A stretch of 64,000 nt of DNA, taken from positions 2,245-66,244 of the forward strand of contig JBKJWL010000170.1 of NCBI GenBank assembly GCA_046716885.1. Reading direction: 5' to 3'. The notes under the pieces are model-generated. The model made no database searches. It saw only the letters and a program-made list of their open reading frames with translations, and was not told the origin of the DNA. Below, piece by piece: positions 1-25,019 of the stretch. The translations under genes were made by a program, and so were the position numbers. This stretch comes from Thermoanaerobaculia bacterium (GTDB lineage: Bacteria > Acidobacteriota > Thermoanaerobaculia > UBA5066 > Gp7-AA6). Numbering within the stretch: the first letter of the stretch is position 1; every line of letters starts with the position of its first letter.

Positions 1-1877
1 CAGATCTGGAGGGCGTCGCCGCCGACCGGGAGATACCCCGCCACCGCCTCGTGGTCGCGGTAGCGGATGCCGAAGCGCAGCCCCACGGTCCCGAAGAAGC
101 GGGCCGAGTCGCGATATCCGATGGCCATGCCGGAGACTTTCCGGAGGCTCTCGACGCGCGAGAGATCGCCGACGTCGAAGTCCTCGTTGAAGACCGTTCC
201 CCGTCCCCAGAGGACGGGAGTGTGCTGGTACCAGGCGCGGCGGCTGAACTCGGAGTCCGCGAGGGCGGCTCCGCTTTGCTCGAGCTCGAGTGACGAAGTC
301 CCCTGGAAGAACGACTCGCCGAGCGTGCGGTAGGCGCCCTCCGGATCCTCCCGAGCCACGTAGCGGGCGAAAGCGGTCGGGCCGAAGACGTCCCCTTCGC
401 GGAACGCGCGGGCGATCCTGCGGTTGGCCGCGATCGGGACCAGGGTCAGGAGGACGACGGCAACGGCGACGCCGCGCCTTCTCGCCGCGCCGAGAGCGGC
501 GAGCGCGATGACCGTCGCCATCCAGCAGAGACCCGCCTCCGAGAACGCCAACGGCAGGCTCCGGGCGGCGACCGGGACGCGGGTGGGATCCGCGCCGACG
601 GCACGGGTGGCGATCCGCCCCGCCGCTTCCGGGAAAAGCGCCGCGGCGAAGGCCAGCGCCGCGAAGAGCCCGCCGACGAGGACGAGACTCGAGAGACTCC
701 GCCGGCGCTCCCGCCAGACGTCGAACGCCAGCCCGACGAAGAGCGCGAGCGCGAAGACGATCGCCACCGCCAGCTTCTCCGGGTTGCGCAGGGGCAGCGG
801 CGAGGAGAGATCGCCCCAGCTCGCCGGCAGCAGGCTGGGGGCCACGGAGACAAGGAGCGCGGCGATGAGCAGTATGCGCGCGAAGCGCGCGCCCCGCGCG
901 GGCGACTTCCAGGCGACGAAGACGGCGATCAGCGCAAACGCCCCGGCGTAGAGCGTCGGGAAGAGACCCATCGCCCGCCCCCGATGGATGGAGGCGGCCC
1001 ACGTCGCCTGGCTCGCCATTTCCCAGGAAGCGCCGAAGGGATAGGGAATGGCGAGCTCGGCGAGCCGCCAGGGATGGATCGAGAACAGGAGAACGTCCGT
1101 CAGCTTCATGCCGAGGACGGCCCGGTTGGTCTGCGGGATCCAGAGAGCCGTGGCCAGGAGCTGCGGCGCGGCCGCGAGCGCCCCGAGCAGCACCGCGAGA
1201 CCGAAGACCCCGGCCGACTGGAGCCGCTCGCGGCGGTTCTGCTCGACCGCCAGCCACAACGCCGCGCACGCGAGGGCGAGCGCGATCGTGAAAATGTCGG
1301 CCGCGAGGAAATCGAGCGCCAGGAGACAGGACAGAAGCAGCAGGCGCGACCACAGCGTTCCACTTCGCCGCCCGGCCGCCCAGACGATCCACGGCAGCAG
1401 GGTCATCCCCGGCTGGATGTGGGGGAAGAAGGCCTCGCCGACCGAGACACCCGAAAACACATACGTCACCGCGCCGATCCACGCGGCCGCCCGGGAGCGG
1501 CCGAGCGCGGTCAGAAGGATGAGCATTCCGATTCCGGCAGCGATCCAGTGCGCGACCGGAAAGACCCGCAGAGCCACGGGCAGCGGCAACGGCGACAACA
1601 GCACACGCACGGGATAGAGCGCGCCCGAATTGGGGTTCGGGGCGAGCGGCCGCCCTCCCGACACCTCGGGCGTCCAGACCGGCAGCCGCCCGCGCACCCA
1701 CGCGTCGTGGACGCTCTTCTCCAGCGGGATGTTGTAGGCGATCATGTCCCGCCCGCCGAAGTTGCGCCCGGTCACGAGCGGATCGGCGTACAGCAAGACC
1801 ACGAGCGCCGCGAACGCGGCCGCGAGAGAAAGTCGCGCCCATCGGGACCCGCCCGAAACGGGATTCGCGGCGCTCAC
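1..1877 (-). CDS. YfhO-like GT-C membrane glycosyltransferase, paralog 1 (3' end runs off the left edge)
   Basis: Absent from the ORF track because it is open at the window edge. My translation from GTG at 1877 reads VSAANPVSGGSRWARLSLAAAFAALVVLLYADPLVTGRNFGGRDMIAYNIPLEKSVHDAWVRGRLPVWTPEVSGGRPLAPNPNSGALYPVRVLLSPLPLPVALRVFPVAHW. It is collinear with the 781-aa neighbour and 55 of 81 aligned residues are identical by hand alignment. The frame stays open to nt 1 (...RYRDHEAVAGYLPVGGDALQI). GTGA start/stop overlap at 1874-1877. Confidence 0.6.
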   Translation of the reverse strand, partial: MSAANPVSGGSRWARLSLAAAFAALVVLLYADPLVTGRNFGGRDMIAYNIPLEKSVHDAWVRGRLPVWTPEVSGGRPLAPNPNSGALYPVRVLLSPLPLPVALRVFPVAHWIAAGIGMLILLTALGRSRAAAWIGAVTYVFSGVSVGEAFFPHIQPGMTLLPWIVWAAGRRSGTLWSRLLLLSCLLALDFLAADIFTIALALACAALWLAVEQNRRERLQSAGVFGLAVLLGALAAAPQLLATALWIPQTNRAVLGMKLTDVLLFSIHPWRLAELAIPYPFGASWEMASQATWAASIHRGRAMGLFPTLYAGAFALIAVFVAWKSPARGARFARILLIAALLVSVAPSLLPASWGDLSSPLPLRNPEKLAVAIVFALALFVGLAFDVWRERRRSLSSLVLVGGLFAALAFAAALFPEAAGRIATRAVGADPTRVPVAARSLPLAFSEAGLCWMATVIALAALGAARRRGVAVAVVLLTLVPIAANRRIARAFREGDVFGPTAFARYVAREDPEGAYRTLGESFFQGTSSLELEQSGAALADSEFSRRAWYQHTPVLWGRGTVFNEDFDVGDLSRVESLRKVSGMAIGYRDSARFFGTVGLRFGIRYRDHEAVAGYLPVGGDALQI

Positions 1878-4219
1878 GCGGCCTTCCTGACGCGGGAAAG
1901 CCCCAGAAGCAGCAACGCCGCTGCCGCGGGCCCCCACCGCGAGAGCTCCAGCCCCGGAGCGTTCTCCCGCCACTCGATGCGGTGCTCCCCCGCGGGCACG
2001 GGCAGCGCCGAGAAGGCAATCTGCGCCGGCGAGAGGTCCACCGGCCGGCCGTCGAGAAGCACCGTCCGATAGCTCCAGTCGCCACGCAAGACGAAGAGCC
2101 AGGTCGGATCGGGACAGTTCACCTCGAGCACGAGGCGCTCCGGGGACTTCTCGAGTATTCGGAGGCGGCCGGGCCGGGCCGCGCCCCGCGCCTGCCGGCC
2201 GGTCTCGACGACGATCTCGTCGGCGGCGAGGCGCGGCAGAAGGGCCAGAGCCTCGAGGGGGCCCGGCTCCTCGCGCCAGCGCGCAGCCAGGCGGACGTCC
2301 GGCTGCGCCTCCGGGTTCTCATCCCACGCGCGGAAGGCGTCTCCCCCGAAGGGACGGAAGCCGGCGAGAGGCGGATGATCGCGGAACCGGATGCCGTAGC
2401 GCAGGGACAGCGACGAGAAGAACGGGCCGGAATCCGTCTGCCCCACGGCGATCCCCGAGATGCGCCGGAGGCTTTCGATGCGGGAGAGATCCCCGGCGTC
2501 GAGGTCGCTGTTCAGAACCGTGCCCCGGCCCCAGAGAGTCGGCGTGTAGTAGAACCAGGACTCGCGAAAGAACTCGGTCCCCGCCAGGTCGCCGCGCATC
2601 GAGGCGTCGAACAGCGGAGACACCGGCCGGTAGAGGCTTTCGTCCAGCGCACGGAAGGCCCCTCCGGGATCCCGCTGGGCGATCGCGCGCGCGAAGGCCG
2701 TCGGGGGATAGACCGTGCCGTCGTGCGCCGTCTGGGCGACGGGGCGGCCGGCGCAGAGCGGCACGGCGGTCAGCAGAACGAGCGCGGCAAAGAGCGGCGC
2801 CCGGCCGCGCCGCGCGAGCAGTACCGCGGCGACGGCGGTCGCGGCCCACAGCAGGCCCGCGTCGGCGAAGGAGGCGGGTGCCTGCGCGGCCGCGGAGGCG
2901 ATGAGATCCTTCGATACGCCGACTGATCCGACGAGCAGGCGGCCCGCCTCGAGCGGAGCCAGCAGCGCGGCGAGGGCCGCGGTCGCCAGGACACCGGCCA
3001 CGGCGAGGATCCCTCGCCGCCCGGCGCCGCGGCGGCGAAAGCGGTCGACGGCGACAGCGGCCGCGATGGCCAGCGCGAACGTGGCGCCGAGCATGAACTT
3101 CTCCGGATAGCGGAGCGGAATGGGCGATGGCAGCCGGGCCCAGGAGTCCGGCAGGAGGTGGCCGGAGAGCGCAAGGGCCACTGTCACGAGAAAGAGCGCG
3201 CGGGCGAAACGCGCGCCGGGGGACGGGACAGGCAGCCGGGAGGGAAAGAGACCCGCGATCGCGATGGGCCCGACGAAGAAGGTGACGAAGAAGTGCCGGA
3301 ACGCATGGATCCCCCAGTCCCGCGACAAGTCCATCGTCCACGTCGCGCCAAACGGGTAGGGAACCGCGAGCTCGAGCAGCCGCCAGGGCGAGATCGTGAA
3401 GCCCATGACTTCCGCCAGCGTCATCCCCCCGATGACGCGGCGCGTCTCCGGTGCCAGCAGCGCGGTTGCCAGAATCTGCGGCAGCGCGAGGAGGGCCGCC
3501 GCGGCGAGCCCGAAGGCGAGGCCGGTGGCGCGGGGGCGCCGCTCCTCCTCGGGCGTCTCGAGCAACAGCCAGAGCGCGGCCGAGAGCAGCGCGAGAGCCA
3601 GGGAGAACGCGTCGCCCGCCAGGAGCAACAGCCCGTACACCAGGGCGAGCACGAGAGTCCTCCCGAAAGGCCGCCCGCCTGGCCGCACGAGCCCCCAGAG
3701 CGTCCAGGGAAGCAGGCTCGCGCCCGGCTGGAAGTTGCTGTAGAAGACCTCCGACACGACGACGCCCGAGAAGGCGAAGCTGATCGCCGCGACCCAGGCC
3801 GCGGAGCGCGAGCCGCCGATCGCTCGCGCGAGCGCGAGCATCCCCAGGCCCCCGAGGATCCAGTGGAAGACGGGGAAAAACCGCATCGCCGCCGGAAAAG
3901 GGACGAGCGAGAGGAGCGGCCGGAGGGGGTAGAAAACCCCCGCGTTCGGATTGGGCAGCAGGGGCCGCCCGCCGGAAACCGTCTCCCACCAGACCGGAAT
4001 CCGCCCACGCGACCACGCGTCGTGCACCGCCTTCTCGAGCGGCAGGTTGTAGGCGACGATGTCCCGGCCCACGAAGGTCCGGCCCGTCAGCAGCGGATCG
4101 GAGTAGGCGGCCAGCACGAGCAGCGTGAAGAGGAGGGCGGGCACAGCGCCCGCGAGCCGCCGGCTGGACGAAGGTGTCAAAGATTTCGATTCCACGGCGT
4201 ACGGGTTAGGATAGGGCAT
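1874..4219 (-). CDS. YfhO-like GT-C membrane glycosyltransferase, paralog 2
   Basis: 781-aa ORF with ATG at 4219. The N-terminal two-thirds is polytopic and hydrophobic, followed by a soluble C-terminal domain. The first loop, GRDIVAYNLPLEKAVHDAWSRGRIPVWW..GGRPLLPNPNAGVFYP, resembles the YfhO-family N-terminal loop as I recall it from B. subtilis YfhO. Overlapping ORFs in other frames are Arg/Gly-rich junk. Confidence 0.6.
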   Translation of the reverse strand: MPYPNPYAVESKSLTPSSSRRLAGAVPALLFTLLVLAAYSDPLLTGRTFVGRDIVAYNLPLEKAVHDAWSRGRIPVWWETVSGGRPLLPNPNAGVFYPLRPLLSLVPFPAAMRFFPVFHWILGGLGMLALARAIGGSRSAAWVAAISFAFSGVVVSEVFYSNFQPGASLLPWTLWGLVRPGGRPFGRTLVLALVYGLLLLAGDAFSLALALLSAALWLLLETPEEERRPRATGLAFGLAAAALLALPQILATALLAPETRRVIGGMTLAEVMGFTISPWRLLELAVPYPFGATWTMDLSRDWGIHAFRHFFVTFFVGPIAIAGLFPSRLPVPSPGARFARALFLVTVALALSGHLLPDSWARLPSPIPLRYPEKFMLGATFALAIAAAVAVDRFRRRGAGRRGILAVAGVLATAALAALLAPLEAGRLLVGSVGVSKDLIASAAAQAPASFADAGLLWAATAVAAVLLARRGRAPLFAALVLLTAVPLCAGRPVAQTAHDGTVYPPTAFARAIAQRDPGGAFRALDESLYRPVSPLFDASMRGDLAGTEFFRESWFYYTPTLWGRGTVLNSDLDAGDLSRIESLRRISGIAVGQTDSGPFFSSLSLRYGIRFRDHPPLAGFRPFGGDAFRAWDENPEAQPDVRLAARWREEPGPLEALALLPRLAADEIVVETGRQARGAARPGRLRILEKSPERLVLEVNCPDPTWLFVLRGDWSYRTVLLDGRPVDLSPAQIAFSALPVPAGEHRIEWRENAPGLELSRWGPAAAALLLLGLSRVRKAA

Positions 4220-4229
4220 CGAGCGGGAA

Positions 4230-5699
4230 GTGCAAACCCGGTCACGCGCGGCGATCGGTCTCCTGCTCCTCGCCGCCGCCGTCTCCGTCGTGGCTCGTCT
4301 CTGGCTGCTCCTCGAGCGGCCTCTCTGGTTCGACGAACTCTTTACGGTCTGGGCCGCGCGCCTGCCCCTCCGTGAGCTCGTCGCGGCCCTGCGCTTCGAC
4401 TCGGGGCCCCCCGGGTTCTACGTGATCGAGAAGCCGTTCGTTCTGCTCGCCGAGCGGTGGACCGACGCCGCTCCCCTGGCGCGCGCGCTCTCCTTTCTCG
4501 CGGCGCTCGGACTCTTCGCCGCGGCGCGGACTCTTCCGCGCGGAGTCGCGCGGGCGACGCTCGTGCTGCTGCTGTCCTCCTCGGTCCTCGTGAATCTCTA
4601 CGCGGCCGAGGCGCGCCCCTACGCGCTCCTGTCGCTCCTCGGTCTGGCGCTCTTCCTGCTCGCGCTCTCCGGGCAAGAGACCCCCGCACGGGTGGCGATG
4701 GTCGGCGGCCTCGCTGCGCTGGCTCTCTATACCCATTACCTGGCCATCGTCGCGGTTGCGGCGCTCGTGCTGCTCTGCGTCCTCGAGCGCCGCTGGAGGT
4801 CCTGCGCCGCGCTCGCCGCGGGAGGCGCGGCGTTTGCGCCCTGGGTCCCGGTCCTCCGCGCCCAGCCCGCCGAGTCGATGGCGTGGATGCGCGAGACGCC
4901 CTGGGGCTCGATCGCGGGGTTCCTCTCCGCGCTCGGAGGGGTGGGCCGCGTTCCCGCCTCGTTCGGGCCGGCGCCGCCGACCGCGCTCTTTTTCGCCGCT
5001 CTCGTCGCGGGCGGGATCCTGCTCGCATTGCTCTGCGCCCGCGCACGAACCGACCGCGAGACGCGCCGCGCCCTGGCCTTCGTGCTGCTCGTGCTCGGGG
5101 GTGTCCTGGCGGCGGGCGCGTGGCGGCCGATCGCCTTCGCCGGAAGAACCGAGATGGCCGTGCTGCCGGTGTTCCTGTGGGCCGCGGCGCGCGCCGCGTC
5201 GGAGAGCCGACCCACGCGGTGGGCGGTGGGAGCCGTCTCCGTTCTCGGTATCGTCGCGACCGCCGGCTTTCTTCGGGCGCCGCACGCCGAGTATCCGGCC
5301 TCCGCGGTCGCGGCGAGCCTGGCGCGCGTGGTGGGCCCGCGAGACGTCGTCGTCGCGGGGGGGAGCTTCTACCTCCCCGCGCGACTGGCCTCGGAGCGCG
5401 GCGATCTCGCGGTGGCCGTCCGCCCGATGCCCGAGGAGCTCGGCCGGCACCCGGGCTGGTTCGTCCCCGCTCTGCCCGGACCGGCCGAAGAGCGCGCTCT
5501 CGAGCGGGCCCTTGGCGAGGCTCGCGAGGGCGGCCGGCTCTTTGTGGCGCTGCCTCCCGCTTACGCGACTCCGGGTCTGCTGCGTTTGCTCGGCGCTCCG
5601 GGCGGCCGGACGCGCACGCTCCTGCAGACCGCCGACGCGCTGGTCATCCTGCGCACGCCGGATCAACGCCGTAGCGCTCCCGCTCCCGCCGGACCCTGA
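4230..5699 (+). CDS. ArnT/PMT-like (GT39/GT83-type) GT-C membrane glycosyltransferase
   Basis: 489-aa ORF with GTG start. An N-terminal TM segment is followed by the loop ERPLWFDELFT (DE motif) and DSGPPGFY (compare the KPPL-type motif), then many hydrophobic segments. The antisense 490-aa ORF (4242..5714) is charged Arg/Gly junk. Confidence 0.55.
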   Translation: MQTRSRAAIGLLLLAAAVSVVARLWLLLERPLWFDELFTVWAARLPLRELVAALRFDSGPPGFYVIEKPFVLLAERWTDAAPLARALSFLAALGLFAAARTLPRGVARATLVLLLSSSVLVNLYAAEARPYALLSLLGLALFLLALSGQETPARVAMVGGLAALALYTHYLAIVAVAALVLLCVLERRWRSCAALAAGGAAFAPWVPVLRAQPAESMAWMRETPWGSIAGFLSALGGVGRVPASFGPAPPTALFFAALVAGGILLALLCARARTDRETRRALAFVLLVLGGVLAAGAWRPIAFAGRTEMAVLPVFLWAAARAASESRPTRWAVGAVSVLGIVATAGFLRAPHAEYPASAVAASLARVVGPRDVVVAGGSFYLPARLASERGDLAVAVRPMPEELGRHPGWFVPALPGPAEERALERALGEAREGGRLFVALPPAYATPGLLRLLGAPGGRTRTLLQTADALVILRTPDQRRSAPAPAGP

Positions 5700-6771
5700 C
5701 GAGCTCCCAGGCAAACCAGAGCAGAGCCGCGAGCCACGTGCCGAGGGATGTGGGGCGGATCGGCCACGGAATCGCGAGGCTCTCGGGCGCGGAGGCGTGA
5801 TAGAGCGCGCCCGCCAGCGTGAAGACGCCGTACGCCACCGAGGGAAAGAGGGAGCCCAGCGCGATCGGCCACACGAGGTACTGCACCGCGAAAGAAGGCG
5901 AGAAGCAGAGGAGCGCCAGGAAAAGCAGAAGGCACGCGCGGGTCAGCTCCCAGTGGCGGGTCTCCCGCAGCACCCAGGCCACCGCGACGAGCAGGAGGAG
6001 CGAGAAGACCAGAGGAAGGGGCTGCGACAGAGAGAGGAAAGCCTGCAGACCACCGGGCTTCTGGAGCGACGCTTCGGAAACCCGCGCCGGGTACAGAAAG
6101 ACGTGCCGGACGATCGGCCCGAGGGCGGATGCGTACGGCAGGAAACACGCGGCAAACACAAGGTACGGCGCCAGGACGAGCGCATCCGGGAGCCCCTCCC
6201 TCCCTTGCCGCTGCCGCCGACACGAGAAGAGAAGCGGGTGAAACGCGGTGACGTGCTTGACGAGGAGCGAGAGCGCCAGCATTCCGGCCACACCGATCTG
6301 ATTCGCCCGCGACTTCGGCCCAGCGGCCATCCACAGCGCCGCGAGGAGGAACACGATCGACAGGCCGTCGAACTGGCCGTGCGCGCAGGAGATCAGGACC
6401 GAGATCGGATTGGAGAAGAAGAGAAGCGCCCGCCGCCGCGCCTCGCCGGGAGCGAGCCCGAGCCGGCGGCGGCCGACGCCGATCAGCAAAAGCGTGGAGG
6501 CCGTGTCCGTGGCGATCAGGAGCAACCCCAGCAGGAGTACGAACGCTCCGACGTTGGGCGCGGCGGCCAGCCAGAGCCCCGCGACCACGAACGACCAGAG
6601 GGGGCTGTAGTTGTAGCGCTCGGTCAGGGCGTAGACGTTCTCCCCCTCGAGGACGCCCTGCACGACGATCAGGTAAGACTGCGTGTCGAAGTTGCCCCGG
6701 AAACCCGCCGCGACCGAGATCCGGAGGACGAGGACGAGCGCGAAGATGAGGACGAATCGGCCGCGGCTCAC
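5644..6771 (-). CDS. GT87/DUF2029-like (PimE-type) short GT-C membrane glycosyltransferase
   Basis: Track ORF 5644..7164 trimmed to the GTG at 6771, which forms a GTGA overlap with the stop of the upstream gene at 6768. The product starts VSRGRFVLIFALVLVLRISVAAGFRGNFDTQSYLIVVQGVLEGENVYALTERYNYSPLW, a D..Y...G..Y....Y.Y.P pattern I associate with GT87. About 10 hydrophobic segments; 375 aa. Confidence 0.55.
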   Translation of the reverse strand: MSRGRFVLIFALVLVLRISVAAGFRGNFDTQSYLIVVQGVLEGENVYALTERYNYSPLWSFVVAGLWLAAAPNVGAFVLLLGLLLIATDTASTLLLIGVGRRRLGLAPGEARRRALLFFSNPISVLISCAHGQFDGLSIVFLLAALWMAAGPKSRANQIGVAGMLALSLLVKHVTAFHPLLFSCRRQRQGREGLPDALVLAPYLVFAACFLPYASALGPIVRHVFLYPARVSEASLQKPGGLQAFLSLSQPLPLVFSLLLLVAVAWVLRETRHWELTRACLLLFLALLCFSPSFAVQYLVWPIALGSLFPSVAYGVFTLAGALYHASAPESLAIPWPIRPTSLGTWLAALLWFAWELVRVRRERERYGVDPACAG

Positions 6772-10575: not shown

Positions 10576-10617
10576 GGTCTCCCGAGATAATACGCGAACC
10601 GGAAGCCTTCCCGCATA

Positions 10618-12636: not shown

Positions 12637-12640
12637 CGTG

Positions 12641-16772: not shown

Positions 16773-16780
16773 GCCGCGGC

Positions 16781-17899
16781 CTACGGCCCGGCGCCCTCCG
16801 GCAGGAGCCCGAGGTGCGAGAGCAGGCCGAGGTAGATGTCGGGCCGGCAGCCGTTCAGGGGGATCACGCCCCAGGCGTAGTAGACCGACAGCGCGGCAAA
16901 GACGGGAAACATCCAGCGGAACGCGCGCGTGTCGATCAGATCCCGGAATCCGACGATCAGAGCGAAGGGCGCCATCACCAGAAAGTACCGGCTCCAGTCC
17001 TCCGTCGAGACGAAGAGCAGCAGGCAGAGCTGAAAGGCGCAGTACCAGAAGAGCGCCGGGAACCGCTCGCGGAGGCGGGAAGTCCCGACGGCGTAGACGA
17101 CAAACAGCAGGATGTGGAACTCGACCTGATGGTAGAGGCCCTTCTCGAAGAGCGTTGGCAGGAAGCCGAAGGGGCGGAAGGCCGCCATCTTCTCGCCGTG
17201 CGGCGTGAGGTACGCAAAGAAGTTGCCGAACCGGATCGCGCAGAACAGGAAGTAGCCGAAGAGGCCCGCCGGGATGAGTGCCAGCCAGGGCCAGGACCGC
17301 CAGCGCCGTTCCCGCGCGAGCGCGACGGCGTACGCGGGCGCGAACATGAGGCCCGAGATCCGCGTGACCGCGGCAAGCCCCGCGAGAAGCGACGCTCGCC
17401 CGTAGCGCGCCTTCTCGAAAAACCAGACCGACCCGAGCGCCAGCGCGACGTAGAGCGCCTCGGTCGCGCCGGTCGACCGGTAGAGAAACCAACGCGGCGG
17501 AAGAAACAGAAAGACCAGCGACAGGAATGCGGGCGACTGCAGCTTCCAAACGTCGCGGGCGAGGCGGTAGAAGAGCAGGACGGCGGCGACCGACGCCAGG
17601 ACCGACACGAGGAGCAGCGCGGGCTCGTAACCGATCCAGGCCAGCGCCCGCACGCAGAGCGGATAGAGCGGCAGGTGCGTCAGAAAGTAGGTCGGCGTGT
17701 AGACGTACGCGAGCAGCGGGTTTCCCGGCTCGACGGCGTACAGCGTTCGCGCGACCGTGAGGTAGTTGGGCCCGTCCCAGAACCGATACACCGTGGACAT
17801 GCGCGAGAGGAACGGGAGGTAGACGAGAAACGAGCCCGCGACGGAAGCGAGCGTCAGCCAGATCTCCGGCCGGACGCCGGCACGCGGTCGCTCGGTCAC
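16781..17899 (-). CDS. Short GT-C membrane protein, PIG-V/GT76-like (Mannosyl_trans2-type), last gene of the arn operon
   Basis: 372 aa and polytopic. RFWDGPNYLTVARTLY...THLPLYPLCVRAL matches the WD..hY..IA..gY...fPLYPl pattern I recall for PIG-V-type mannosyltransferases. It lies 21 nt downstream of arnD. Confidence 0.5.
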   Translation of the reverse strand: MTERPRAGVRPEIWLTLASVAGSFLVYLPFLSRMSTVYRFWDGPNYLTVARTLYAVEPGNPLLAYVYTPTYFLTHLPLYPLCVRALAWIGYEPALLLVSVLASVAAVLLFYRLARDVWKLQSPAFLSLVFLFLPPRWFLYRSTGATEALYVALALGSVWFFEKARYGRASLLAGLAAVTRISGLMFAPAYAVALARERRWRSWPWLALIPAGLFGYFLFCAIRFGNFFAYLTPHGEKMAAFRPFGFLPTLFEKGLYHQVEFHILLFVVYAVGTSRLRERFPALFWYCAFQLCLLLFVSTEDWSRYFLVMAPFALIVGFRDLIDTRAFRWMFPVFAALSVYYAWGVIPLNGCRPDIYLGLLSHLGLLPEGAGP

Positions 17900-17920: not shown

Positions 17921-18841
17921 CTAGGAGGTTGCGGCCTCCGGCCAGCCGGTCGTCACGGTGCCGCCGCGTCCGGGAAGGGTCGTTCGCGTCAGCGGGCGCA
18001 CGGGGACGGCGTCGTGTTGCGCGAGGGCTTCGCGGGCGAGCTCGGAAAGGAGCGGGAACGTCACGCCGTCCGCGCGCCAGTCGTCGAGGATCGAGGTGAA
18101 CAGCGCGGCCTTGGAGCGGCCCTCGACCTCGGCGTGGATGGTGTGGACCTGCGTGCCGCGCGCGGCCTGCCGGAAGAAGGCCCGCTGGTCTTGGTCCGAG
18201 CGGAGTTCGGGCCAGGAGAGCGTTTCGTCGAGGGTCGGGAGGGTGGTCGGGATCTCGAGCGTCCGAAACGCTCGCTCGCCGGCCGACGGGAAGAAATACG
18301 ACCCGCCGCGGGTGTCGGAGGTGTAGAGCAGAGACCGCTCCTGCTGGACCTCGAGCGAGAGGGCGTTGGCCGTCCAGCCCGGCGCGGCGCTTGCGCGGGC
18401 CGGCATGCCGAAGATGCGGAGATACTCGGCGTGGGCGCGGCCGTAGTCCGCCCGGATCTCCTGGAGGCTCATCCGATCCAGCCGGTCGTGCCACCCGACG
18501 TGGTCCCAGCCGTGCACTCCCGTGTCATGGCCGGCCTGCGCGGCCGCGCGCATCTGTTGGGAGCCGCGGGCACCGATCAAGGGCGCGGGGAGCAGCGTTC
18601 CGGCGAGCATCGTGCGCCAGCCGTAGAGCGACGGCGCCTTGGAGCGGAGCATCTTCTTCAAAAACCCCTTGCGCGTGAAGACGCGGCGGATCGCCACTCC
18701 GGAGCGGTCCGGGCCCAGGGTGAAGAAGAAAGTCGCGCGGATTCCCCGCTCGGCAAAGATCTCCAGCAGCCGCGGAACACCTTCGCGGGTCCCCTCGTCC
18801 GTGTCGCAGTCGACCTTGAGGGCGACGCGACGCTCGGTCAT
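17921..18841 (-). CDS. arnD: 4-deoxy-4-formamido-L-arabinose-phosphoundecaprenol deformylase (polysaccharide deacetylase family)
   Basis: 306 aa. [53 protein letters not shown] and HAEVEG align by eye along the whole length of E. coli ArnD. ATGA overlap with the upstream gene. Confidence 0.9.
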
Positions 18842-19863
18842 CGGGTGGCCCGGCGGGCCTTCAGGTAGAAGTCGAGGGTGCGCCGGATGCCCTCGCCGAG
18901 GCCGACCCGCGGCTCCCAGCCGAGGATCTGTCGAGCGCGGCGGATTGAGGGAACGCGCGTCAGGATGTCCTGGTAACCCGCGCCGTAGTAATCCCCGGAC
19001 GAGACTTCGACGAGGCGCGCGTTGCGGCCCAGCTCCTCGAACCCGGGCGTGCCAGCGACGGCCGCGACCATCCGCTCGGCGAGATCGCGGATCGACAGGT
19101 CGTTGGCGGGGTTCCCGATGTTGAAGATGCCGCCGTCGGCCGCGGCGCTACGGTTCTCGAGAATCGCCATGAGCGCGTCGATGCCGTCGGAGATGTAGGT
19201 GAACGACCGCCGCTGCGTGCCGCCGTCCACGAGCTTGATCGGCTCGCGGTACAGGATGTTGTGGAGGAACTGCGTGAGCACCCGGCTCGATCCCTCCTTG
19301 GGCGAGTCGATGTCGTCCAGGTGCGGGCCGAACCAGTTGAAGGGGCGGAAGAGCGTGAACTGCAGGCCCTGCTGCCCGTACGCCCAGATGACGCGGTCGA
19401 GAAGCTGCTTGCTGCACGAGTAGATCCAGCGCTGCTTCTGGATCGGTCCGTAGACGAGCGGCGAGGAGTCCTCATCGAACTCGGCGTCTTGGCACATACC
19501 GTAGACCTCGGAGGTGGACGGGAAGACGACGCGCTTCCCGTACCGGACGGCCTGCTTGACGATGCGCAGGTTCTCCTCGAAATCGAGCTCGAAGACGGCC
19601 AGCGGCCTTGTGACGTAGGCCGCCGGCGTGGCGATCGCCACCAGCGGCAGCACGACGTCGCACTTCTTGACCTGGTACTCGATCCACTCCTTGTTGATCG
19701 CGATGTCGCCCTCGAGGTACGTGAAACGCGGGTTCTCCAGGAAGGAGGCGATCTTGTCGGACCCGATGTCGAGGCCAGAAACGTGCCAGTCCGTCGTCTC
19801 GAGGATGCGCTCGGTCAGGGCGTTGCCGATGAACCCGTTGACGCCGAGGATCAGGACTCGCAT
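18838..19863 (-). CDS. arnA: UDP-glucuronate oxidative decarboxylase (stand-alone ArnA C-terminal domain)
   Basis: 341 aa. [76 protein letters not shown] is near-collinear with E. coli ArnA residues from about 315 to the end. Confidence 0.92.
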
Positions 19864-19866
19864 CCT

Positions 19867-20772
19867 CTACCTCCTCTCCGCCTGAAACCGCGCCCCATCC
19901 ATCTCCTCGCGGCCCTCGGGCTGAACGCGCAGGAGCTCGACGTAGCGGTCGTCGCCGCACGCGACGTTCAGCCGTCCCTCTTCGCCGCGGACCTGGCCCG
20001 GAAAGTTGTCGTGCGCCGCCAGGCCCGGAAGCGCCGTCCGCCAGACGAACGTCTTCTCCCCGAAGAGGTCCGTGAAGGCCCCGGGATACGGATGCGTGAC
20101 GGCGCGCACGAGATCGTGAACCTCTTTGGCCGGCCGGCTCCAGTCGATCAAGCCGTCTTCGGGCCGGCGCTTCCCGAAGCGCGTGGCCTGCGACTCGTCC
20201 TGCGGCCGCGTCGTCGCGGCGCCCGCCTCGAGCTCGTCGATCCGGCGCGCGAGGATCGCGGCGGCCGCGGCCGTGACCCGCCGCTGCACCTCGAGCGCCG
20301 TGTCGTCGGGGCCGATCGGAACGGCTTCCTGGTCGACAATGGCGCCGGTGTCTGCTCCTGACGTCATGGCGTGGAGTGTGGCCCCCGTGCGCGTCTCCCC
20401 CTTCAGAACCGCCCAGTTGACCGGCGCGCGCCCGCGGAACTTCGGCAGCAGCGACCCGTGCATGTTCCACGCGCCGAGCCTCGGAACCGAGAGCATCTCC
20501 TCGGGAAGGATCCGGCGGTAGTAGAAGGAGAAGATCAGGTCGGGCGCGGCGACGCGGAGGCGCGCGATCGCCTGTGGGTCGAGGGGGTTCTCCATCACGA
20601 GGGGCTCGAGGCCGTGGGCGCGGGCGAGCTCCGCGACGCTCGGGTACCAGAAATTCTCGCCGGGCGCGTCCCGGTGCGTCGCGACGAAGACAACCTTCTC
20701 GCGGCGCTCGAGCAGGAGCTTCAGGCACGCGTGGCCCGTGTCGGAGTAGGCGAAGACGGCGATGCGGGTCAT
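19867..20772 (-). CDS. arnA: UDP-Ara4N formyltransferase (stand-alone ArnA N-terminal domain)
   Basis: 301 aa with formyltransferase motifs: FSFYYRRILP, NMHGSLLPKFRGRAPVNWAVL and HAMTSGADTGAIV. It is separated by 3 nt from the decarboxylase gene. A split arnA is known, for example in Burkholderia. Confidence 0.9.
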   Translation of the reverse strand: MTRIAVFAYSDTGHACLKLLLERREKVVFVATHRDAPGENFWYPSVAELARAHGLEPLVMENPLDPQAIARLRVAAPDLIFSFYYRRILPEEMLSVPRLGAWNMHGSLLPKFRGRAPVNWAVLKGETRTGATLHAMTSGADTGAIVDQEAVPIGPDDTALEVQRRVTAAAAAILARRIDELEAGAATTRPQDESQATRFGKRRPEDGLIDWSRPAKEVHDLVRAVTHPYPGAFTDLFGEKTFVWRTALPGLAAHDNFPGQVRGEEGRLNVACGDDRYVELLRVQPEGREEMDGARFQAERR

Positions 20773-21749
20773 GGGAGTCGGGAGTCGAGAGTCGGGGGTC
20801 GGGAGGAGTCCGGAAGCTTCTCCTCGCCGAGGCCGTAGATGCGCCGGACGCGGAAGCGGGGCCGGCCGCGGACCTGCTGATAAATCCGGCCGACGTACTC
20901 GCCCACGATCCCGAGTCCGGCCATCGCGACACCGAGCAACGTGAAGAGAATCGCGAAGAGCGTGAACACGCCCTCCACCTCGGCGCCCACGATCAGCCGC
21001 CGCACGAAGAGAAACAGGCCGAAGACGATGCCGCCGAACGCGACGAGCATACCCATCAGGCCGAAGGCCTGGAGAGGCACGAGCGAGAAGCCCGTCATGA
21101 GGTCAAAGTTGAGTCGGACGAGCCGGTAGAGCGAGTAGTTCGAGACGCCGTGCTGGCGCGCCGCGTGCGCCACCTCGACCTCCGTGGGCCGGCGCGCGAA
21201 GCTCTGGGCCAGCGCCGGGATGAACGTCGAGGCCTCGTCGCAGCGGTTGATCTCCTCCACCACGTCGCGCGAGTACGCCCGGAGCATGCAGCCGAAATCG
21301 GTCAGCTTCATCCGGGTGATCGCGGTCGTGACCCGGTTGACGATCCGGGAGGCGGCCTTGCGCAGCATCGAATCCTGTCGGGACTGCCGCACGCCGCCCA
21401 CGACGTCGTACCCCTCCTCGATCTTCGCCAGGAGCTTCGGGATCTCCTCCGGCGGATTCTGCAGGTCGGCGTCGAGCGTCACGATCACGTCCCCCGAAAC
21501 CTGCTCGAAGGCGGCGAGGATCGCCTGGTGCTGGCCGAAGTTGCGGGCGAGCTCGAGCACGCGGATCCGGTCGGGGCGCTCGCGCGCGGCGGCCTGGAGG
21601 ATCTCGAGCGAGCGGTCGCGGCTCCCGTCGTCGACGAACACGAGCTCGTACGGCCGCCCCCCGGCTTCCATGACGGCGCCGAGCCGGCGAAGGAGCTCCG
21701 GCAAATTGCCTTCCTCGTTGTAGACGGGGACCACGACGGAGACTTTCAT
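20769..21749 (-). CDS. arnC: Undecaprenyl-phosphate 4-deoxy-4-formamido-L-arabinose transferase (GT2 with two C-terminal TM segments)
   Basis: 326 aa. Motifs are KVSVVVPVYNEE, FVDDGSRD and LDADLQNPPEEIP, followed by two C-terminal TM helices and YQQVRGRPRF as in E. coli ArnC. It carries an extra repeat-encoded tail of about 20 aa. Confidence 0.9.
   Translation of the reverse strand: MKVSVVVPVYNEEGNLPELLRRLGAVMEAGGRPYELVFVDDGSRDRSLEILQAAARERPDRIRVLELARNFGQHQAILAAFEQVSGDVIVTLDADLQNPPEEIPKLLAKIEEGYDVVGGVRQSRQDSMLRKAASRIVNRVTTAITRMKLTDFGCMLRAYSRDVVEEINRCDEASTFIPALAQSFARRPTEVEVAHAARQHGVSNYSLYRLVRLNFDLMTGFSLVPLQAFGLMGMLVAFGGIVFGLFLFVRRLIVGAEVEGVFTLFAILFTLLGVAMAGLGIVGEYVGRIYQQVRGRPRFRVRRIYGLGEEKLPDSSRPPTLDSRLP
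20773..20810. repeat. Tandem heptad repeat GGGAGTC x5 (degenerate), inside the 3' end of arnC
   Basis: Read directly: GGGAGTC GGGAGTC GAGAGTC GGGGGTC GGGAGGAGTC. Confidence 0.9.
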
Positions 21750-21814: not shown

Positions 21815-22978
21815 TCACCGGCGGAACCGGCCGAGCACCTCGCCGACCGCCGCGATCACGTCCTCCTGATCGGCGTCGCTGAGACCCGGAAAGAGCGGCA
21901 GCGACACGATCCGCTCTGAGACGAAGTGCGCTTCCGGAAAGTCCTCGGGGCTCCAGCCGTAGGTCTTCGCGTAGTACGTGAACTCGTGCGCCGCCGTGTA
22001 GTGGAGGCCGGTCCCGATGTTCCTGCTCTTGAGCTCCGCCATGAATTGGTCGCGCGAAATCGTCAGACGGTCGACGTCGAGGAGCGGCGTGTAGAGATGC
22101 CACGCGTGGCGCGCCGGGTACGGGACGCGCTGCGGGAGGATCAGCCCGGTCACGTCCGCGAACGCCTGGTCGTAGCGGGCGGCGAGAAGCGCGCGCTCCT
22201 GGATGAACCCGTCCAAACGCGGGAGCTGCCAGAGGCCGAGCGCCGCCTGGATGTCCATCATGTTGTACTTGAAGCCGGGGACCTCGACGTCGTAGCGGGG
22301 GCTCCCCTCCCTGGCAAACCGCTTCCACGCCTCCCGGTCCATGCCGTGGAACTTGCGCAGCGAGGCGCGCTCGAAGACGCCCTGGTCGTCGGTTACGACC
22401 ATGCCGCCTTCGCCGGTCGTGATGTTCTTGTTCGGGTGGAAGGAAAAAACCGACGTCGTCGGAAACGACCCGATCCGGCGCCCCTTGTACTCGGTCCCGA
22501 CGGCGTGGGCGGCGTCCTCGAGCACGGCGACGCCCCGCGAGCCGGCGAGCTCGAGCAGCGGATCTAGGTCCACCGGCTGGCCGACGAAGTGGACGGGCAC
22601 GATGGCCTTCGTTTTCCGCGTGAGCCGGGCCTCGATCGCCTCCACGCGGATATTCAGCGTGGCCGCGTCGATGTCGGAGAGCACGGGAACCGCGCCGCAG
22701 TGCACGATCGTATTGAGCGTGGCGACGAACGTCATCGGCGTCGTGATCACTTCGTCCCCGGGCCCGACCCCGAGCGCCAGGAGCGCCACGTGGAGACCCG
22801 CGGTCGCCGAGGAGACCGGCACCGCGAACCGGCCGCCGACGTAGTCGGCAAACGCCGCCGCGAACTTCTCGGTCTTCGGCCCCGTCGTAATCCAGCCCGA
22901 GCGCAGCGTCTCGACGACCTCGCGGATCTCCTCCTCCCCGAGGCTCGGACGGGCAAACGGCAGGAAAGAGTCGCGCAT
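21815..22978 (-). CDS. arnB: UDP-4-amino-4-deoxy-L-arabinose--oxoglutarate aminotransferase (DegT/DnrJ/EryC1 family)
   Basis: 387 aa. FLPFARPSLGEEEIREVVETLRSGWITTGPK, SSATAGLH, EDAAHAVGT and FSFHPNKNITTGEGG are collinear with E. coli ArnB. Confidence 0.9.
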   Translation of the reverse strand: MRDSFLPFARPSLGEEEIREVVETLRSGWITTGPKTEKFAAAFADYVGGRFAVPVSSATAGLHVALLALGVGPGDEVITTPMTFVATLNTIVHCGAVPVLSDIDAATLNIRVEAIEARLTRKTKAIVPVHFVGQPVDLDPLLELAGSRGVAVLEDAAHAVGTEYKGRRIGSFPTTSVFSFHPNKNITTGEGGMVVTDDQGVFERASLRKFHGMDREAWKRFAREGSPRYDVEVPGFKYNMMDIQAALGLWQLPRLDGFIQERALLAARYDQAFADVTGLILPQRVPYPARHAWHLYTPLLDVDRLTISRDQFMAELKSRNIGTGLHYTAAHEFTYYAKTYGWSPEDFPEAHFVSERIVSLPLFPGLSDADQEDVIAAVGEVLGRFRR

Positions 22979-22992: not shown

Positions 22993-24222
22993 CTACCTGC
23001 TCCAGCGGATGCCTTCCGAGAAGTCCCAGCGCCGCGGCGGGCTCCAGATCCCGGCGCCCGCGCGCCCGGACGTCACCTCAAAGCGCAGCACGTCTCGCCG
23101 GTAGTCGTACGGCGCTCCGTCCTTCGCGTGGACCGCGGCGTCGAGCGTGTACGGGCCGGGCGCGAGATCGAGCGCCGGGATCGCGAGCGCCACCCGCGCC
23201 TCCCCCTCGAAGCGCGCCGGACGAAGGCCCTCGAGGGCCGTGTTCGTCGCGAAGACGACTGTGCCCGAGACCGTGGCGACGCGGAATCCGAACACGAAGT
23301 CCTCGAGGGCCTCGGCGGCCCGGACGGTCATCTCGAGCACGGCCGGCTCCCCCGAGCGCAGGCGCCCGGCCGCACGGCCCTCGCCGTCCAGGAGGCGCAC
23401 GCTCTCGATCGAGGCGGCACCCGAGCCGACGCGGCTGCCGCCTCCGGCCTCCCGGAGCCGGCGCCCTCCCTCCTCCACGGCCACCCGCTCGCGGTAGCGC
23501 GCGACCGTCTCGACCGCCGGCCCGTCGGCCGCGATCCGCCCGCTGTCCAGCCACAGAGCCCGCCGGCAGCGCTCGCCGACGAGCGCGAGGTCATGGGACA
23601 CGAACACGAGGGTCTTGCCGGCCCGCTCGAACTCCGAGAACTTCTCGAGGGCGCGGTGCGCGAAGGCCTCGTCGCCGACGGCGAGAACCTCGTCGACGAG
23701 AAGGACGTCCGGATCGCTGTGCGCCGCGATCGCGAAGCCCAGGCGCACGGCCATGCCCGAGGAGTATGTCTTCACGGGCGCATCCAGGAACACCTCTACC
23801 CCGGCGAAGCGCACGATCGCGTCGAAGCGCGAAGCGATCTCCTTTTTCGTCAGGCCGAGCAACAGGCCCGTGATCTCGACGTTCTCGCGGCCCGAAAGCT
23901 CGGGATGGAACCCGGCTCCGAGCTCCAGGAGCGCCGCCAGCCGCCCGCGCACGGAGACGGACCCCGCCGTCGGCCGGACGATCCCGGCCAGGAGCTTCAA
24001 GAGGGTCGACTTGCCCGAGCCGTTGGCGCCGATGACGCCGAGCGTCTGCCCCTCCGGGACCTCGAAAGACACGTCCTCGAGGGCCGTCACGCCCTCCCGT
24101 CCCGGGGAGCGCGGCGCGGCGCGCGCGAGGAGCGCCGATTTCAGCGTCCCGTGCGGACGGGAATAGCGGCGGTAGCGCTTCGTCGCGCCGCGCACGGCGA
24201 TGGCCGGCTCCCGCGTTGTCAC
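22993..24222 (-). CDS. wzt: Polysaccharide-export ABC transporter ATP-binding protein with a C-terminal glycan-binding-type extension (Wzt/TagH type)
   Basis: Track ORF 22993..24387 trimmed to GTG 24222, which forms a GTGA overlap with the wzm stop. Walker A is GANGSGKST, the signature is YSSGM, and Walker B is LLVDE. An extra C-terminal domain of about 150 aa (IESVRLLDGEG...GPYTLDAAV) resembles Wzt_C. Confidence 0.85.
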   Translation of the reverse strand: MTTREPAIAVRGATKRYRRYSRPHGTLKSALLARAAPRSPGREGVTALEDVSFEVPEGQTLGVIGANGSGKSTLLKLLAGIVRPTAGSVSVRGRLAALLELGAGFHPELSGRENVEITGLLLGLTKKEIASRFDAIVRFAGVEVFLDAPVKTYSSGMAVRLGFAIAAHSDPDVLLVDEVLAVGDEAFAHRALEKFSEFERAGKTLVFVSHDLALVGERCRRALWLDSGRIAADGPAVETVARYRERVAVEEGGRRLREAGGGSRVGSGAASIESVRLLDGEGRAAGRLRSGEPAVLEMTVRAAEALEDFVFGFRVATVSGTVVFATNTALEGLRPARFEGEARVALAIPALDLAPGPYTLDAAVHAKDGAPYDYRRDVLRFEVTSGRAGAGIWSPPRRWDFSEGIRWSR

Positions 24223-25019
24223 GCCTCCTCCGCCAGCGAGTCGCGCAGCCACTCGAAGAGGGCACCTCCGACCGCCAGACAGGCCGCGGCGGTGCCCGCC
24301 ATCCACAGCCAGTCCGCGGCCCGGACCGGGCGAAAGAAGAAGAGCGTGTCGTGCACCGCGGCGAAGTAGCTCGCGAAGGGATTGCACCGCAGGAGGCCGC
24401 GGAAGCGCTCGGGCACCGCCTCGACCGGATAGAGCACGGGCGTCAGAAAGAAGGTCAGCGTCACAAGATTGCCGACGATGTCCCGCACGTCACCGAAGTG
24501 GACCGAGAGCGCCGAGACCCCGAGCGCGATGCCGAAGACCGCGAGCGTCAGGAGCGCCAGGACGAGCGGGAACTCCAGGATCGCGGCCCCCGGTTCAACA
24601 CTCCCCCGCCCCGCGGCGACCGCGATCGCGGCCGCGAGCACCGGCAGCGCCAGGGAGAGATGGGCCAGGCGCGCAAGGACGGCCGCCGCGGGAAACACCT
24701 CGGGCGCCACCGTCGTCTTGCGCAGGAGCGGCCCGTTGGCGCGGAACGTCTCGACCGCGTCCGACAGCGACGACGATACGAACGCCCAGACCAGCACGCC
24801 CCCGAAGAGGAAGAGCGCATACGGCTGCACGGCTGCCCGCGGGGAGAACACGAAGCGGAAGACCGTCGCGTAAACGGCGAGCAGCAGGAGGGGGTTCAGG
24901 AACGACCACAGAAAGCCGAGCGCGCCGCCGCGGTAGCGGGCCGAGAGCTCCCGGCGGGCAAGCGCGAGGACGAGCGCCCGCTGCGCGATCGTGCGGCGGA
25001 GAGGGTCGAGAGGATTCAC
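24219..25019 (-). CDS. wzm: ABC-2 type polysaccharide-export permease
   Basis: Track ORF 24219..25712 trimmed to GTG 25019. VNPLDPLRRTIAQRALVLALARRELSARYRGGALGFLWSFLNPLL is the typical Wzm/TagG N-terminus. Six hydrophobic segments; 266 aa. Confidence 0.8.
   Translation of the reverse strand: MNPLDPLRRTIAQRALVLALARRELSARYRGGALGFLWSFLNPLLLLAVYATVFRFVFSPRAAVQPYALFLFGGVLVWAFVSSSLSDAVETFRANGPLLRKTTVAPEVFPAAAVLARLAHLSLALPVLAAAIAVAAGRGSVEPGAAILEFPLVLALLTLAVFGIALGVSALSVHFGDVRDIVGNLVTLTFFLTPVLYPVEAVPERFRGLLRCNPFASYFAAVHDTLFFFRPVRAADWLWMAGTAAACLAVGGALFEWLRDSLAEEA

Follow-up and report, generated by a model that had tools for sequence, protein, structure and literature searches.

In the three-component glycosylation systems described so far, a cytoplasmic GT2 glycosyltransferase loads a sugar onto undecaprenyl phosphate (C55-P), a flippase forms the second component and a membrane glycosyltransferase of the GT-C fold transfers the sugar on the outside (PMC8035078, PMC5836110). 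In mycobacteria, a PpgS-type GT2 and a GT-C enzyme deliver an amino sugar from a polyprenyl-phosphate carrier (PMC3485146). The mycobacterial arabinogalactan/lipoarabinomannan (LAM) cluster Rv3779-Rv3809c contains Rv3779, the Wzm/Wzt pair Rv3781/3783, AftA, EmbC/A/B, AftB and UbiA, with PpgS and Ppm1 encoded elsewhere. Many GT-C enzymes, a Wzm/Wzt exporter and polyprenyl-phosphate donor enzymes are also found together in the locus described here, for which the mycobacterial arabinogalactan cluster is the closest precedent in logic. The locus occupies positions 1-25019 of a 64,000-nt stretch of DNA (the window) from a Thermoanaerobaculia bacterium (GCA_046716885.1, contig JBKJWL010000170.1, positions 2,245-66,244, forward strand), and encodes nine GT-C-type proteins, three GT2 enzymes, arnB, arnC, a split arnA, arnD and wzm/wzt. 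Given the gene identities, the GT-C fold, the conserved catalytic-loop residues, the operon structure and the conserved synteny, it is probably, if by no means certainly, a multi-component glycosylation machinery of the periplasmic face that is conserved across the Thermoanaerobaculia. The genes, designated G1 to G11 where no established name applies, are as follows.

3-1877, minus strand: G1, YfhO-like GT-C, paralogue of G2 (48% identity), truncated at its C-terminus by the window start (sub-threshold YfhO match with family support)
1874-4219, minus strand: G2, YfhO-like GT-C of 781 aa, its stop overlapping the G1 start by 4 nt
4230-5699, plus strand: G3, orphan-family GT-C with a modeled ArnT-like fold and a small C-terminal alpha/beta periplasmic domain (AlphaFold2 and Foldseek)
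5644-6771, minus strand: G4, short GT87-like GT-C of 375 aa (sub-threshold GT87 match and family support)
6768-8165, minus strand: G5, Dpm1/AglJ/PpgS-like soluble GT2, candidate polyprenyl-phosphate sugar synthase, with a class I S-adenosylmethionine-dependent methyltransferase domain (PF00535)
8162-9880, minus strand: G6, PMT_2 (GT39/GT83-type) GT-C (PF13231, PF02366)
9877-10575, minus strand: G7, Dpm1/AglJ/PpgS-like soluble GT2 of 232 aa, candidate polyprenyl-phosphate hexose synthase (PF00535)
10618-12636, plus strand: G8, archaeal-type STT3/AglB-like GT-C (PF02516, AglB alignment)
12641-14287, minus strand: G9, near-orphan GT-C, weakly LA_3751/LA_3752-like (AlphaFold2 and Foldseek)
14343-16772, plus strand: G10, YfhO-like GT-C of 809 aa with a C-terminal transmembrane helix as in YfhO
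16781-17899, minus strand: G11, GT87-like GT-C, last gene of the wzm-wzt-arn operon (GT87)
17921-18841, minus strand: arnD-like lipid-linked sugar deformylase (NF011923, Polysacc_deac_1)
18838-19863, minus strand: stand-alone homologue of the ArnA C-terminal domain, UDP-glucuronic acid oxidative decarboxylase/UDP-4-keto-pentose synthase (NF008872)
19867-20772, minus strand: stand-alone homologue of the ArnA N-terminal domain, formyltransferase (NF005414, Formyl_trans_N, Formyl_trans_C)
20769-21749, minus strand: arnC-like polyprenyl-phosphate 4-formamido-arabinose transferase, GT2 (NF007986)
21815-22978, minus strand: arnB-like UDP-4-keto-pentose aminotransferase (DegT_DnrJ_EryC1, NF008658)
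22993-24222, minus strand: wzt, ATP-binding cassette (ABC) ATPase with a C-terminal Wzt_C glycan-binding domain (ABC_tran, Wzt_C)
24219-25019, minus strand: wzm, ABC-2 permease, first gene of its operon (ABC2_membrane)

The likeness to the mycobacterial cluster extends to single proteins, as G3 and G9 match EmbA/B, AftA, AftB, AftD and PimE structurally and G5 and G7 match the PpgS model. In contrast to that cluster, the locus comes from an acidobacterium, presumably diderm, and has neither a decaprenylphosphoryl arabinose (UbiA/DprE) route nor any galactan glycosyltransferase; the donors would be 4-amino-arabinose (Ara4N) and AglJ/Dpm1-type hexoses, and the GT-C enzymes include YfhO-like, STT3-like and two orphan families. 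The Gram-positive teichoic acid and O-antigen Gtr systems (CsbB/GtrB with GtcA/GtrA and YfhO/GtrC) follow the same logic, and three to four proteins here are YfhO-like, but GtrA/GtcA is missing, the YfhO resemblance is remote (14-15 bits), nine GT-C enzymes stand against one, and the host is presumed to be Gram-negative. The genes arnB, arnC, arnA and arnD lie in the canonical order of the Arn (Pmr) lipid A pathway of Enterobacteria and Burkholderia, and the division of arnA into two genes is also seen in Burkholderia and Ralstonia; unlike in that pathway, there is no arnT or arnE/F, a GT87-like GT-C takes the place of arnT, and the operon opens with wzm-wzt. Archaeal N-glycosylation (AglJ, AglP, AglD/AglS, AglB), together with PglB, offers a further comparison: G8 keeps residues equivalent to D47, D161 and E360 of AglB-L, AglJ is the best NCBIfam model of both G5 and G7, a methyltransferase is present as is AglP in Haloferax, and the GT-C enzymes would be of the lipid-monophosphate-sugar type, as AglS. 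However, all close relatives of G8 have PWS[ML]G for WWDYG, G8 scores below the TIGR04154 cut-off, and the host is a bacterium.

A literature search found no paper describing this locus, and nothing on Thermoanaerobaculia glycosyltransferases, AZOBR_p60025, LA_3751 or Ara4N lipid A in Acidobacteria. An initial annotation of the stretch had held that no characterized locus combines such transferases; this stands for the family mix, while the concept has its precedent in the mycobacterial arabinogalactan cluster. The mechanism class is familiar; the locus differs from the mycobacterial cluster in the mix of GT-C families, in an archaeal-type STT3 that lacks the WWD motif, in an Arn pathway coupled to an ABC exporter and to a GT-C other than ArnT, in the phylum and in the donors. 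The Thermoanaerobaculia are widespread (soil), almost entirely uncultured Acidobacteria, and we know of nothing described on their envelope. A conserved locus so rich in GT-C genes leads one to expect, in this class, a surface glycoconjugate that is prominent and of unusual chemistry.

Nine membrane proteins of the GT-C fold

The nine membrane proteins have 7-11 hydrophobic segments apiece, which was judged to agree with the polytopic N-terminal module of at least eight transmembrane (TM) helices of GT-C enzymes. Each has an Asp or Glu shortly after the first TM helix (TM1) that is kept in at least 95% of homologues, namely D53 in G1/G2 (alignment numbering), D35/E36 in G3, D29 in G4, D33/E34 in G6, D45 in G8, E46 in G9, D34 in G10 and D42 in G11. 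A conserved Asp/Glu in the first extracytoplasmic loop is a hallmark of GT-C enzymes. Although only G6, G8 and G11 score above the Pfam threshold for GT-C families, the profiles, family searches, AlphaFold/Foldseek comparisons and TM segments together bear out the proposal that nine polytopic GT-C-type proteins are encoded in 1-17899. Profile and structure searches, which might have pointed to non-glycosyltransferase folds, assigned all nine to the GT-C fold, in five to seven sequence families. As GT-C enzymes, all nine are predicted to use polyprenyl-(di)phosphate-linked sugars as donors at the outer face of the membrane.

Three of the proteins had been called YfhO-like. G1 has 11 TM-like segments, a conserved R/D motif after TM1 and a match to PF09586 YfhO that lies below threshold (E 0.009); G2 matches YfhO, DUF2079 and PMT weakly, and G10 matches the C-terminal part of YfhO (E 0.015). 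Family-level searches were more telling, with YfhO matches at E<0.1 in 15 of the 27 members of the G1/G2 family (best E 2e-7) and in 16 of the 20 members of the G10 family (best E 2e-6), and hhalign joined the two families at 99.9% probability. The YfhO label therefore holds at the level of families but is remote and below threshold for G1, G2 and G10 themselves. As for the partners of YfhO, the block has GT2 candidates in G5, G7 and ArnC, but no GtrA-like gene and no intergenic space for one.

G6 scores 30.2 bits with PF13231 PMT_2 (cut-off 26.1) and 26.0 bits with PF02366 PMT (cut-off 22.7), and D33 and E34 of its SADEPIH motif are conserved. Its family aligned with that of G8 in hhalign at 94%. 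G11, which had been described as PIG-V-like, has no match to PIG-V (PF04188) and scores instead as GT87 (PF09594, 25.2 bits against a cut-off of 25), with an E value of 8e-12 for the AZOBR_p60025 family. In the G4 family, 12 of 33 members match GT87, and the others match ALG6/8, PIG-U or DUF2079, all of which are GT-C-type membrane families; D29 is invariant, and relatives have between 0 and 3 copies of G4. Profile searches of PDB sequences with the G3, G9, G1/G2 and G4 families, and a single-sequence search with G6, gave nothing meaningful.

Two proteins belong to families that profile databases do not cover. G3 had no match in Pfam, NCBIfam or PDB sequences, and G9 had none in Pfam or PDB sequences and an under-cut-off match to NF047440 (E 3e-9). 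Database searches returned 223 homologues of G3 and 601 of G9, almost all of them "hypothetical", with no Pfam domain among the matches listed. The loops singled out in the initial annotation are present and conserved in these families, with D35 and E36 of the WFDELF loop of G3 invariant and NPNE and SNKAPG conserved in the NPNELSRF and YSNKAPG loops of G9. AlphaFold2 models built from the alignments of these homologues are helical bundles of high predicted quality (G3, pLDDT 91.6 and pTM 0.90; G9, pLDDT 90.3 and pTM 0.92). In Foldseek searches of the PDB, the G3 model matched ArnT best (5EZM, E 1.2e-6, TM 0.59/0.55), followed by ALG12, STT3, AftA, ALG9, DPY19, AftD, PglB, AglB and PimE, all GT-C enzymes, and the top 22 matches of G9 were likewise all GT-C (ArnT, EmbA/B, ALG12, STT3, AglB, Pmt4, AftA/B, PimE and ALG3). 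The models thus define G3 and G9 as putative GT-C families for which Pfam has no model; hhalign with narrow alignments did not link either to other families of the block. Of the description of G3, G6 and G9 as ArnT/PMT-like, what remains is a PMT_2 protein (G6) and two GT-C folds, with no ArnT orthologue; G3 is like ArnT in fold only.

The STT3 homologue G8 scores 45.6 bits with PF02516 STT3 (cut-off 24.5) and 27.1 bits with AglB_core, and reaches 216 bits with TIGR04154, the archaeosortase-associated STT3 model, below its cut-off of 450. Its alignment with A. fulgidus AglB-L spans the whole protein (3WAJ/5GMY, E 7e-12), and D45, D160-Q-H162 and E358 fall on the catalytic positions of the archaeal enzyme and are invariant in 40 diverse relatives. 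Where AglB has WWDYG, however, G8 has PWSMG (residues 530-534), and PWS[LM]GH is found in 36 of 36 syntenic homologues and in all relatives down to about 40% identity, with more distant ones ranging from the canonical WWDYG to many other variants. Structures of PglB and AglB have established WWD as the motif to which the sequon's +2 Ser/Thr binds. Its absence argues for an acceptor other than Asn-X-Ser/Thr, and G8 is predicted probably to transfer to a non-sequon acceptor. The STT3/AglB-like label is supported by profile and catalytic residues, but G8 as an N-oligosaccharyltransferase of the PglB/AglB kind was rejected, as the WWD motif is missing. Public annotation pipelines label G8-type proteins "asparagine N-glycosylation enzyme Stt3". 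The clade consists of natural STT3s that have retained the catalytic core and dropped the sequon-reading WWD, which makes it useful for the study of acceptor choice by oligosaccharyltransferases and for glyco-engineering.

Proposed donor loading, the Arn branch and the exporter

Three GT2 enzymes had been proposed to load sugars on polyprenyl phosphate, and Pfam, NCBIfam and the ranking of solved structures agree with this for ArnC, G5 and G7, which are polyprenyl-phosphate-type GT2s by predicted activity. G5 scores 133 bits with PF00535, its top NCBIfam models are AglJ, DPM, ArnC and PpgS, and the closest solved structures are the P. furiosus dolichol-phosphate-mannose synthase 5MLZ (1.5e-22), ArnC 9HWJ and GtrB 5EKP. 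The GT2 domain had been recognized in the initial annotation, which missed the methyltransferase domain fused to it at about residues 260-400 (Methyltransf_12/23/11). G7 is a paralogue with 59% identity to the N-terminal domain of G5; it scores 121.8 bits with PF00535 and 131, 81 and 76.5 bits with AglJ, DPM and PpgS, all under the equivalog cut-offs.

The UDP-Ara4N branch, with arnB, split arnA and arnD, and the wzm/wzt pair were both confirmed by Pfam and NCBIfam. All five Arn enzymes are present in the E. coli order B-C-A-A-D, and both halves of ArnA pass their cut-offs (decarboxylase, NF008872, 565 bits against 294; formyltransferase, NF005414, 361 bits against 316). ArnD (NF011923, E 2.6e-70) scores 237 bits against a cut-off of 382, ArnC, which has two C-terminal TM helices (NF007986, E 9e-114), 380 against 529, and ArnB 417 bits with DegT_DnrJ_EryC1 and 430 bits with NF008658 against 631. 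The most likely product, judged from these assignments, is Ara4N. G11 follows arnD after a gap of 21 bp, in the position of arnT in the E. coli arn operon, and gene spacing predicts a shared transcript for G11, the Arn genes and the exporter. The Arn aminoarabinose pathway is best known for polymyxin resistance, and its tie to a non-ArnT transferase and an ABC exporter widens its known contexts.

Wzt matches PF00005 ABC_tran (77.6 bits) and PF14524 Wzt_C (94 bits), Wzm matches PF01061 ABC2_membrane (61 bits), and both match galactan-exporter models in NCBIfam. Farther along the window, positions 48971-53449 have a GC content of 0.62, against 0.70 elsewhere, and atypical codon-position GC, and encode one GT2 and two GT4 cytoplasmic glycosyltransferases. 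The stretch may be a polysaccharide module gained by horizontal transfer, and the glycan exported by Wzm/Wzt could originate there. The possibility that the 62% GC stretch at 48-54 kb is an rRNA operon was rejected, as it encodes GT2/GT4 proteins and has no rRNA, tRNA or Rfam match.

A route can be proposed in which the donor sugars, the way of flipping, the order of action and the acceptor are inferred from these parts. At the cytoplasmic face, the three GT2s would load single sugars on polyprenyl phosphate: ArnC, with ArnB, the split ArnA and ArnD, would give lipid-linked 4-amino-arabinose, G7 a lipid-linked hexose, and G5 a second lipid-linked hexose that its fused methyltransferase probably O-methylates. 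Because no GtrA, GtcA or ArnE/F-type gene is present, the donors would be flipped across the membrane by Wzm/Wzt or by the GT-C enzymes themselves; Wzm/Wzt, with its Wzt_C glycan-binding domain, may also, or alternatively, export a lipid-linked glycan made elsewhere. On the outer face, 8-11 GT-C enzymes of five to seven families would then assemble one or several glycoconjugates of the envelope, or add sugars to them, with G8, which has the AglB catalytic residues and no WWD, probably acting on a non-Asn-X-Ser/Thr acceptor. The preferred acceptor is a glycan that is exported by Wzm/Wzt or linked to lipopolysaccharide (LPS), with neighboring pilin-like proteins second.

That the complete ArnB/C/A/D set shares an operon with a GT-C and Wzm/Wzt also suits another explanation, that of an island for decorating LPS (lipid A, core or O-chain), in which each GT-C would add one sugar (Ara4N, hexose or methyl-hexose) from its polyprenyl-phosphate donor and Wzm/Wzt would export the O-chain. 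Periplasmic decoration of this kind is carried out by ArnT, Rhizobium RgtA-D/RgtE, Bordetella LgmABC, Francisella FlmK/FlmF2 and the Gtr enzymes of O-antigen glucosylation. The Wzt_C domain is typical of O-polysaccharide exporters, ArnT is the best structural match of G3, and G6 belongs to PMT_2, a family that includes ArnT-type enzymes. Set against this are the lack of an NCBIfam ArnT match among the nine proteins and of waaL, lpx or O-unit glycosyltransferase genes in the cluster, and a number of transferases, nine, far above that of any known LPS-decoration set, so that we regard this explanation as somewhat unlikely.

The most specific version of the periplasmic machinery is also the most speculative, and we hold it to be improbable as a whole. 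It envisages a major envelope glycoconjugate whose assembly takes place for the most part at the outer side of the inner membrane, where 8-11 GT-C enzymes join sugars supplied singly on polyprenyl phosphate, aminoarabinose and a methylated hexose among them, as a Gram-negative counterpart of mycobacterial arabinan and mannan synthesis. The WWD-less archaeal-type STT3 would act by en-bloc or priming transfer, its non-sequon acceptor being a lipid, a pilin or a residue of some other protein, and Wzm/Wzt would be the carrier-lipid flippase.

Transcription units, gene order and pilin neighbors

The genes of the block are distributed among transcription units on alternating strands. From the left, [G2-G1] on the minus strand is separated by a 10-bp divergent gap from [G3] on the plus strand, which is convergent with [G7-G6-G5-G4] on the minus strand. 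A 42-bp divergent gap leads to [G8], which is convergent with [G9], and a 55-bp divergent gap to [G10], which is convergent with [wzm-wzt-arnB-arnC-arnA(formyltransferase)-arnA(decarboxylase)-arnD-G11]. The junctions of G7-G6-G5-G4 are 4-nt overlaps, and the wzm-wzt-arnBCAAD-G11 unit is likewise tight, with 4-nt overlaps. The divergent start codons lie only 10, 42 and 55 bp apart (4219-4230, 10575-10618 and 14287-14343), and therefore promoters would sit inside neighboring coding sequences, or the true starts further downstream.

Conservation was assessed with the window proteins as tblastn queries against 47 loci centered on the STT3 homologue; genes were counted in the 31 that have full flanks of 10 kb, no two of which come from one species. 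The gene order was the same throughout the 47 loci, and every one of the 31 fully flanked ones retains both the core series G5-G6-G7-G8-G9 and the arrangement of the genes flanking it, down to about 57% protein identity. G5 and G7 were present in all 31, G3, G6 and G9 in 29, G8 and a YfhO-like gene in 28, a G4-like gene in 24, G11 in 22 and G10 in 21; arnD was found in 22, and the further arn genes lie past the flank limit. The number of GT-C genes per 22 kb had a median of 8 (range 4-11), and the copy number of the YfhO-like, G4-like and G11-like paralogous families varied. Since the same order recurs in 31 of 31 loci from different species, the arrangement is far beyond chance, and the genes, whose co-localization elsewhere had been set as a check, occurred together in every related genome examined. 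Among species-representative genomes, related DNA was found only in uncultured Acidobacteriota of the class Thermoanaerobaculia, the closest relative being JBBDKM010000023.1 (protein identity 93-99%). Genes of the G8 type were found in 108 species genomes and those of the G9 type in 161; the 80 listed for each are all uncultured Thermoanaerobaculia or Acidobacteriota metagenome-assembled genomes (MAGs).

Two further observations concern variation within the loci. In nine of them (L007, L008, L009, L012, L020, L021, L033, L037 and L041) an extra GT2, 27-31% identical to G5, lies between G9 and G10, and L014 has an extra ArnC-like GT2 between its G9 and G10 homologues; such genes may provide a fourth donor route in those lineages. 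In the locus of the closest relative (L056:8730-11032 against window 1874-4219), the G2 orthologue is 93% identical in its C-terminal part and about 50% in its N-terminal part, with G1 at 82%. The YfhO paralogues may be mosaic or fast-evolving, or the L056 MAG may be misassembled there.

An arrangement of this kind could also arise if independent modules (Arn with G11, G5-G7 with G6/G8, and the YfhO paralogues) merely lay side by side, held together by co-regulation or recombination. The division into seven transcription units whose strands alternate, the variable copy number of the YfhO-like, G4-like and G11-like genes, the separable arn block and the mosaic-looking G2 orthologue of the closest relative (93% against about 50% identity) all fit such an island. 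The conservation of the core order in 31 of 31 loci, to about 57% identity, is hard to explain without functional coupling, and an island of unconnected modules is, in our view, unlikely.

A different candidate for the acceptor came from the region to the left of the window, which was viewed in L056, the closest relative (93-99% identical), and in eight other species. In all nine, two to three strongly conserved genes in tandem for type IV pilin-like proteins (N_methyl and T2SSG domains) lie past G1 on the same strand (L056:14831-18429, about 2-6 kb beyond the left edge of the window). Directly after the pilins comes a fourth YfhO-like GT-C gene, whose product in L056 scores 30.2 bits with PF09586, above the cut-off of 28.5, and then a PAS histidine kinase, joined in L056 by two PilT-like ATPases; L056 alone has an M20 peptidase gene between G1 and the pilins. 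A Ser/Thr-rich loop is conserved in the pilins, as are NLS and NGT triplets, and these proteins are, as a lead only, possible glycosylation targets. There is a precedent in P. aeruginosa, where TfpW, a GT-C encoded next to pilA, immediately downstream of the pilin genes, arabinosylates pilin from a lipid-phosphate pentose donor; in the related loci a GT-C gene likewise follows the pilins, but the block of pilins and fourth YfhO-like gene lies outside the window, and the sugar pathway is that of Ara4N, not D-arabinofuranose (bioRxiv 10.1101/2020.04.19.049825).

These neighbors would be explained if the locus served to glycosylate surface proteins, chiefly the type IV pilin-like ones, with the GT-C enzymes O- or N-glycosylating pilins and extending their glycans in the periplasm. 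P. aeruginosa TfpW, actinobacterial Pmt, S. mutans PgfS/PgfM1/PgfM2 and archaeal AglB are analogues of such a system. The pilins with the fourth YfhO-like GT-C on the same strand in nine related species, the Ser/Thr-rich loop and triplets, the AglB-like G8 and AglJ-like G5 and G7, and the TfpW precedent with its GT-C next to pilA (bioRxiv 10.1101/2020.04.19.049825) all point in this direction. G8, however, is without the sequon-reading WWD, the pilin block lies beyond the window with a peptidase gene between pilins and G1 in the closest relative, the adjacency may be a coincidence, and systems that glycosylate proteins do not typically include Wzm/Wzt or Arn. Pilins as the chief target are accordingly doubtful, and for the acceptor an exported or LPS-linked glycan ranks first, a pilin or other surface protein second and an island of independent modules last.

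Several findings weigh against the multi-component periplasmic-face machinery, which nevertheless remains the favored interpretation. The block has at least seven transcription units on alternating strands and could therefore be several independent systems, and in two loci (L027 and L029) wzt/wzm follow straight after the GT-C block with no arn genes between, so that the Arn branch is separable. All of the genomes that bear the locus are uncultured MAGs. With G1, G2 and G10 at 14-15 bits the YfhO cut-off of 28.5 is not passed, and G4 scores 18.2 bits with GT87 (PF09594), under the cut-off of 25. ArnB, ArnC and ArnD, although these are their best matches, fall below equivalog cut-offs, so the sugar might be a related 4-amino-pentose, and none of the nine GT-C enzymes matches ArnT in NCBIfam. 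No ArnE/F- or GtrA/GtcA-type flippase and no small ORF resembling the small multidrug resistance (SMR) family was found in the block, where there is no room for an arnE/F or GtrA-type gene because the genes abut or overlap. The cluster also has no initiating phosphoglycosyltransferase and no cytoplasmic polymerizing glycosyltransferase.

Gene boundaries and neighboring genes

Open reading frames were checked by codon-position GC in the window, which is 70% GC. All 18 listed genes in 1-25019 have a coding pattern, with a third-position GC (GC3) of 0.86-0.94 and no internal stops, and the GC3 and frame analysis upheld both their coordinates in the initial annotation and its right boundary at 25019. 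This boundary is the start of wzm, and is followed by a 78-bp divergent gap and a MacB-type ABC ATPase gene. A longer wzm frame, 24219-25712, was rejected because GC3 switches frame at about 25019 and the sequence upstream of that point is part of the plus-strand ATPase gene. The start of wzt, which had been put at 24387, is instead a GTG at 24222, with a GTGA overlap with the wzm stop and a GGAGGAGG ribosome-binding site.

The plus-strand neighbors are of a different kind. The gene at 25098-25784 encodes a MacB/LolD-type ABC ATPase that adjoins wzm and is divergent from it, unrelated to the block, and that at 25781-28348 encodes an 855-aa duplicated FtsX/MacB_PCD permease; the stretch 25098-29375 also holds a CrtC-like double-lipocalin protein. 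Farther away, 42407-46033 on the minus strand encodes one 1208-aa protein in which a 2-oxoacid dehydrogenase E2 acyltransferase domain is fused to a 2-oxoglutarate dehydrogenase E1, a Kgd/OdhA-type E2-E1 architecture better known from Actinobacteria.

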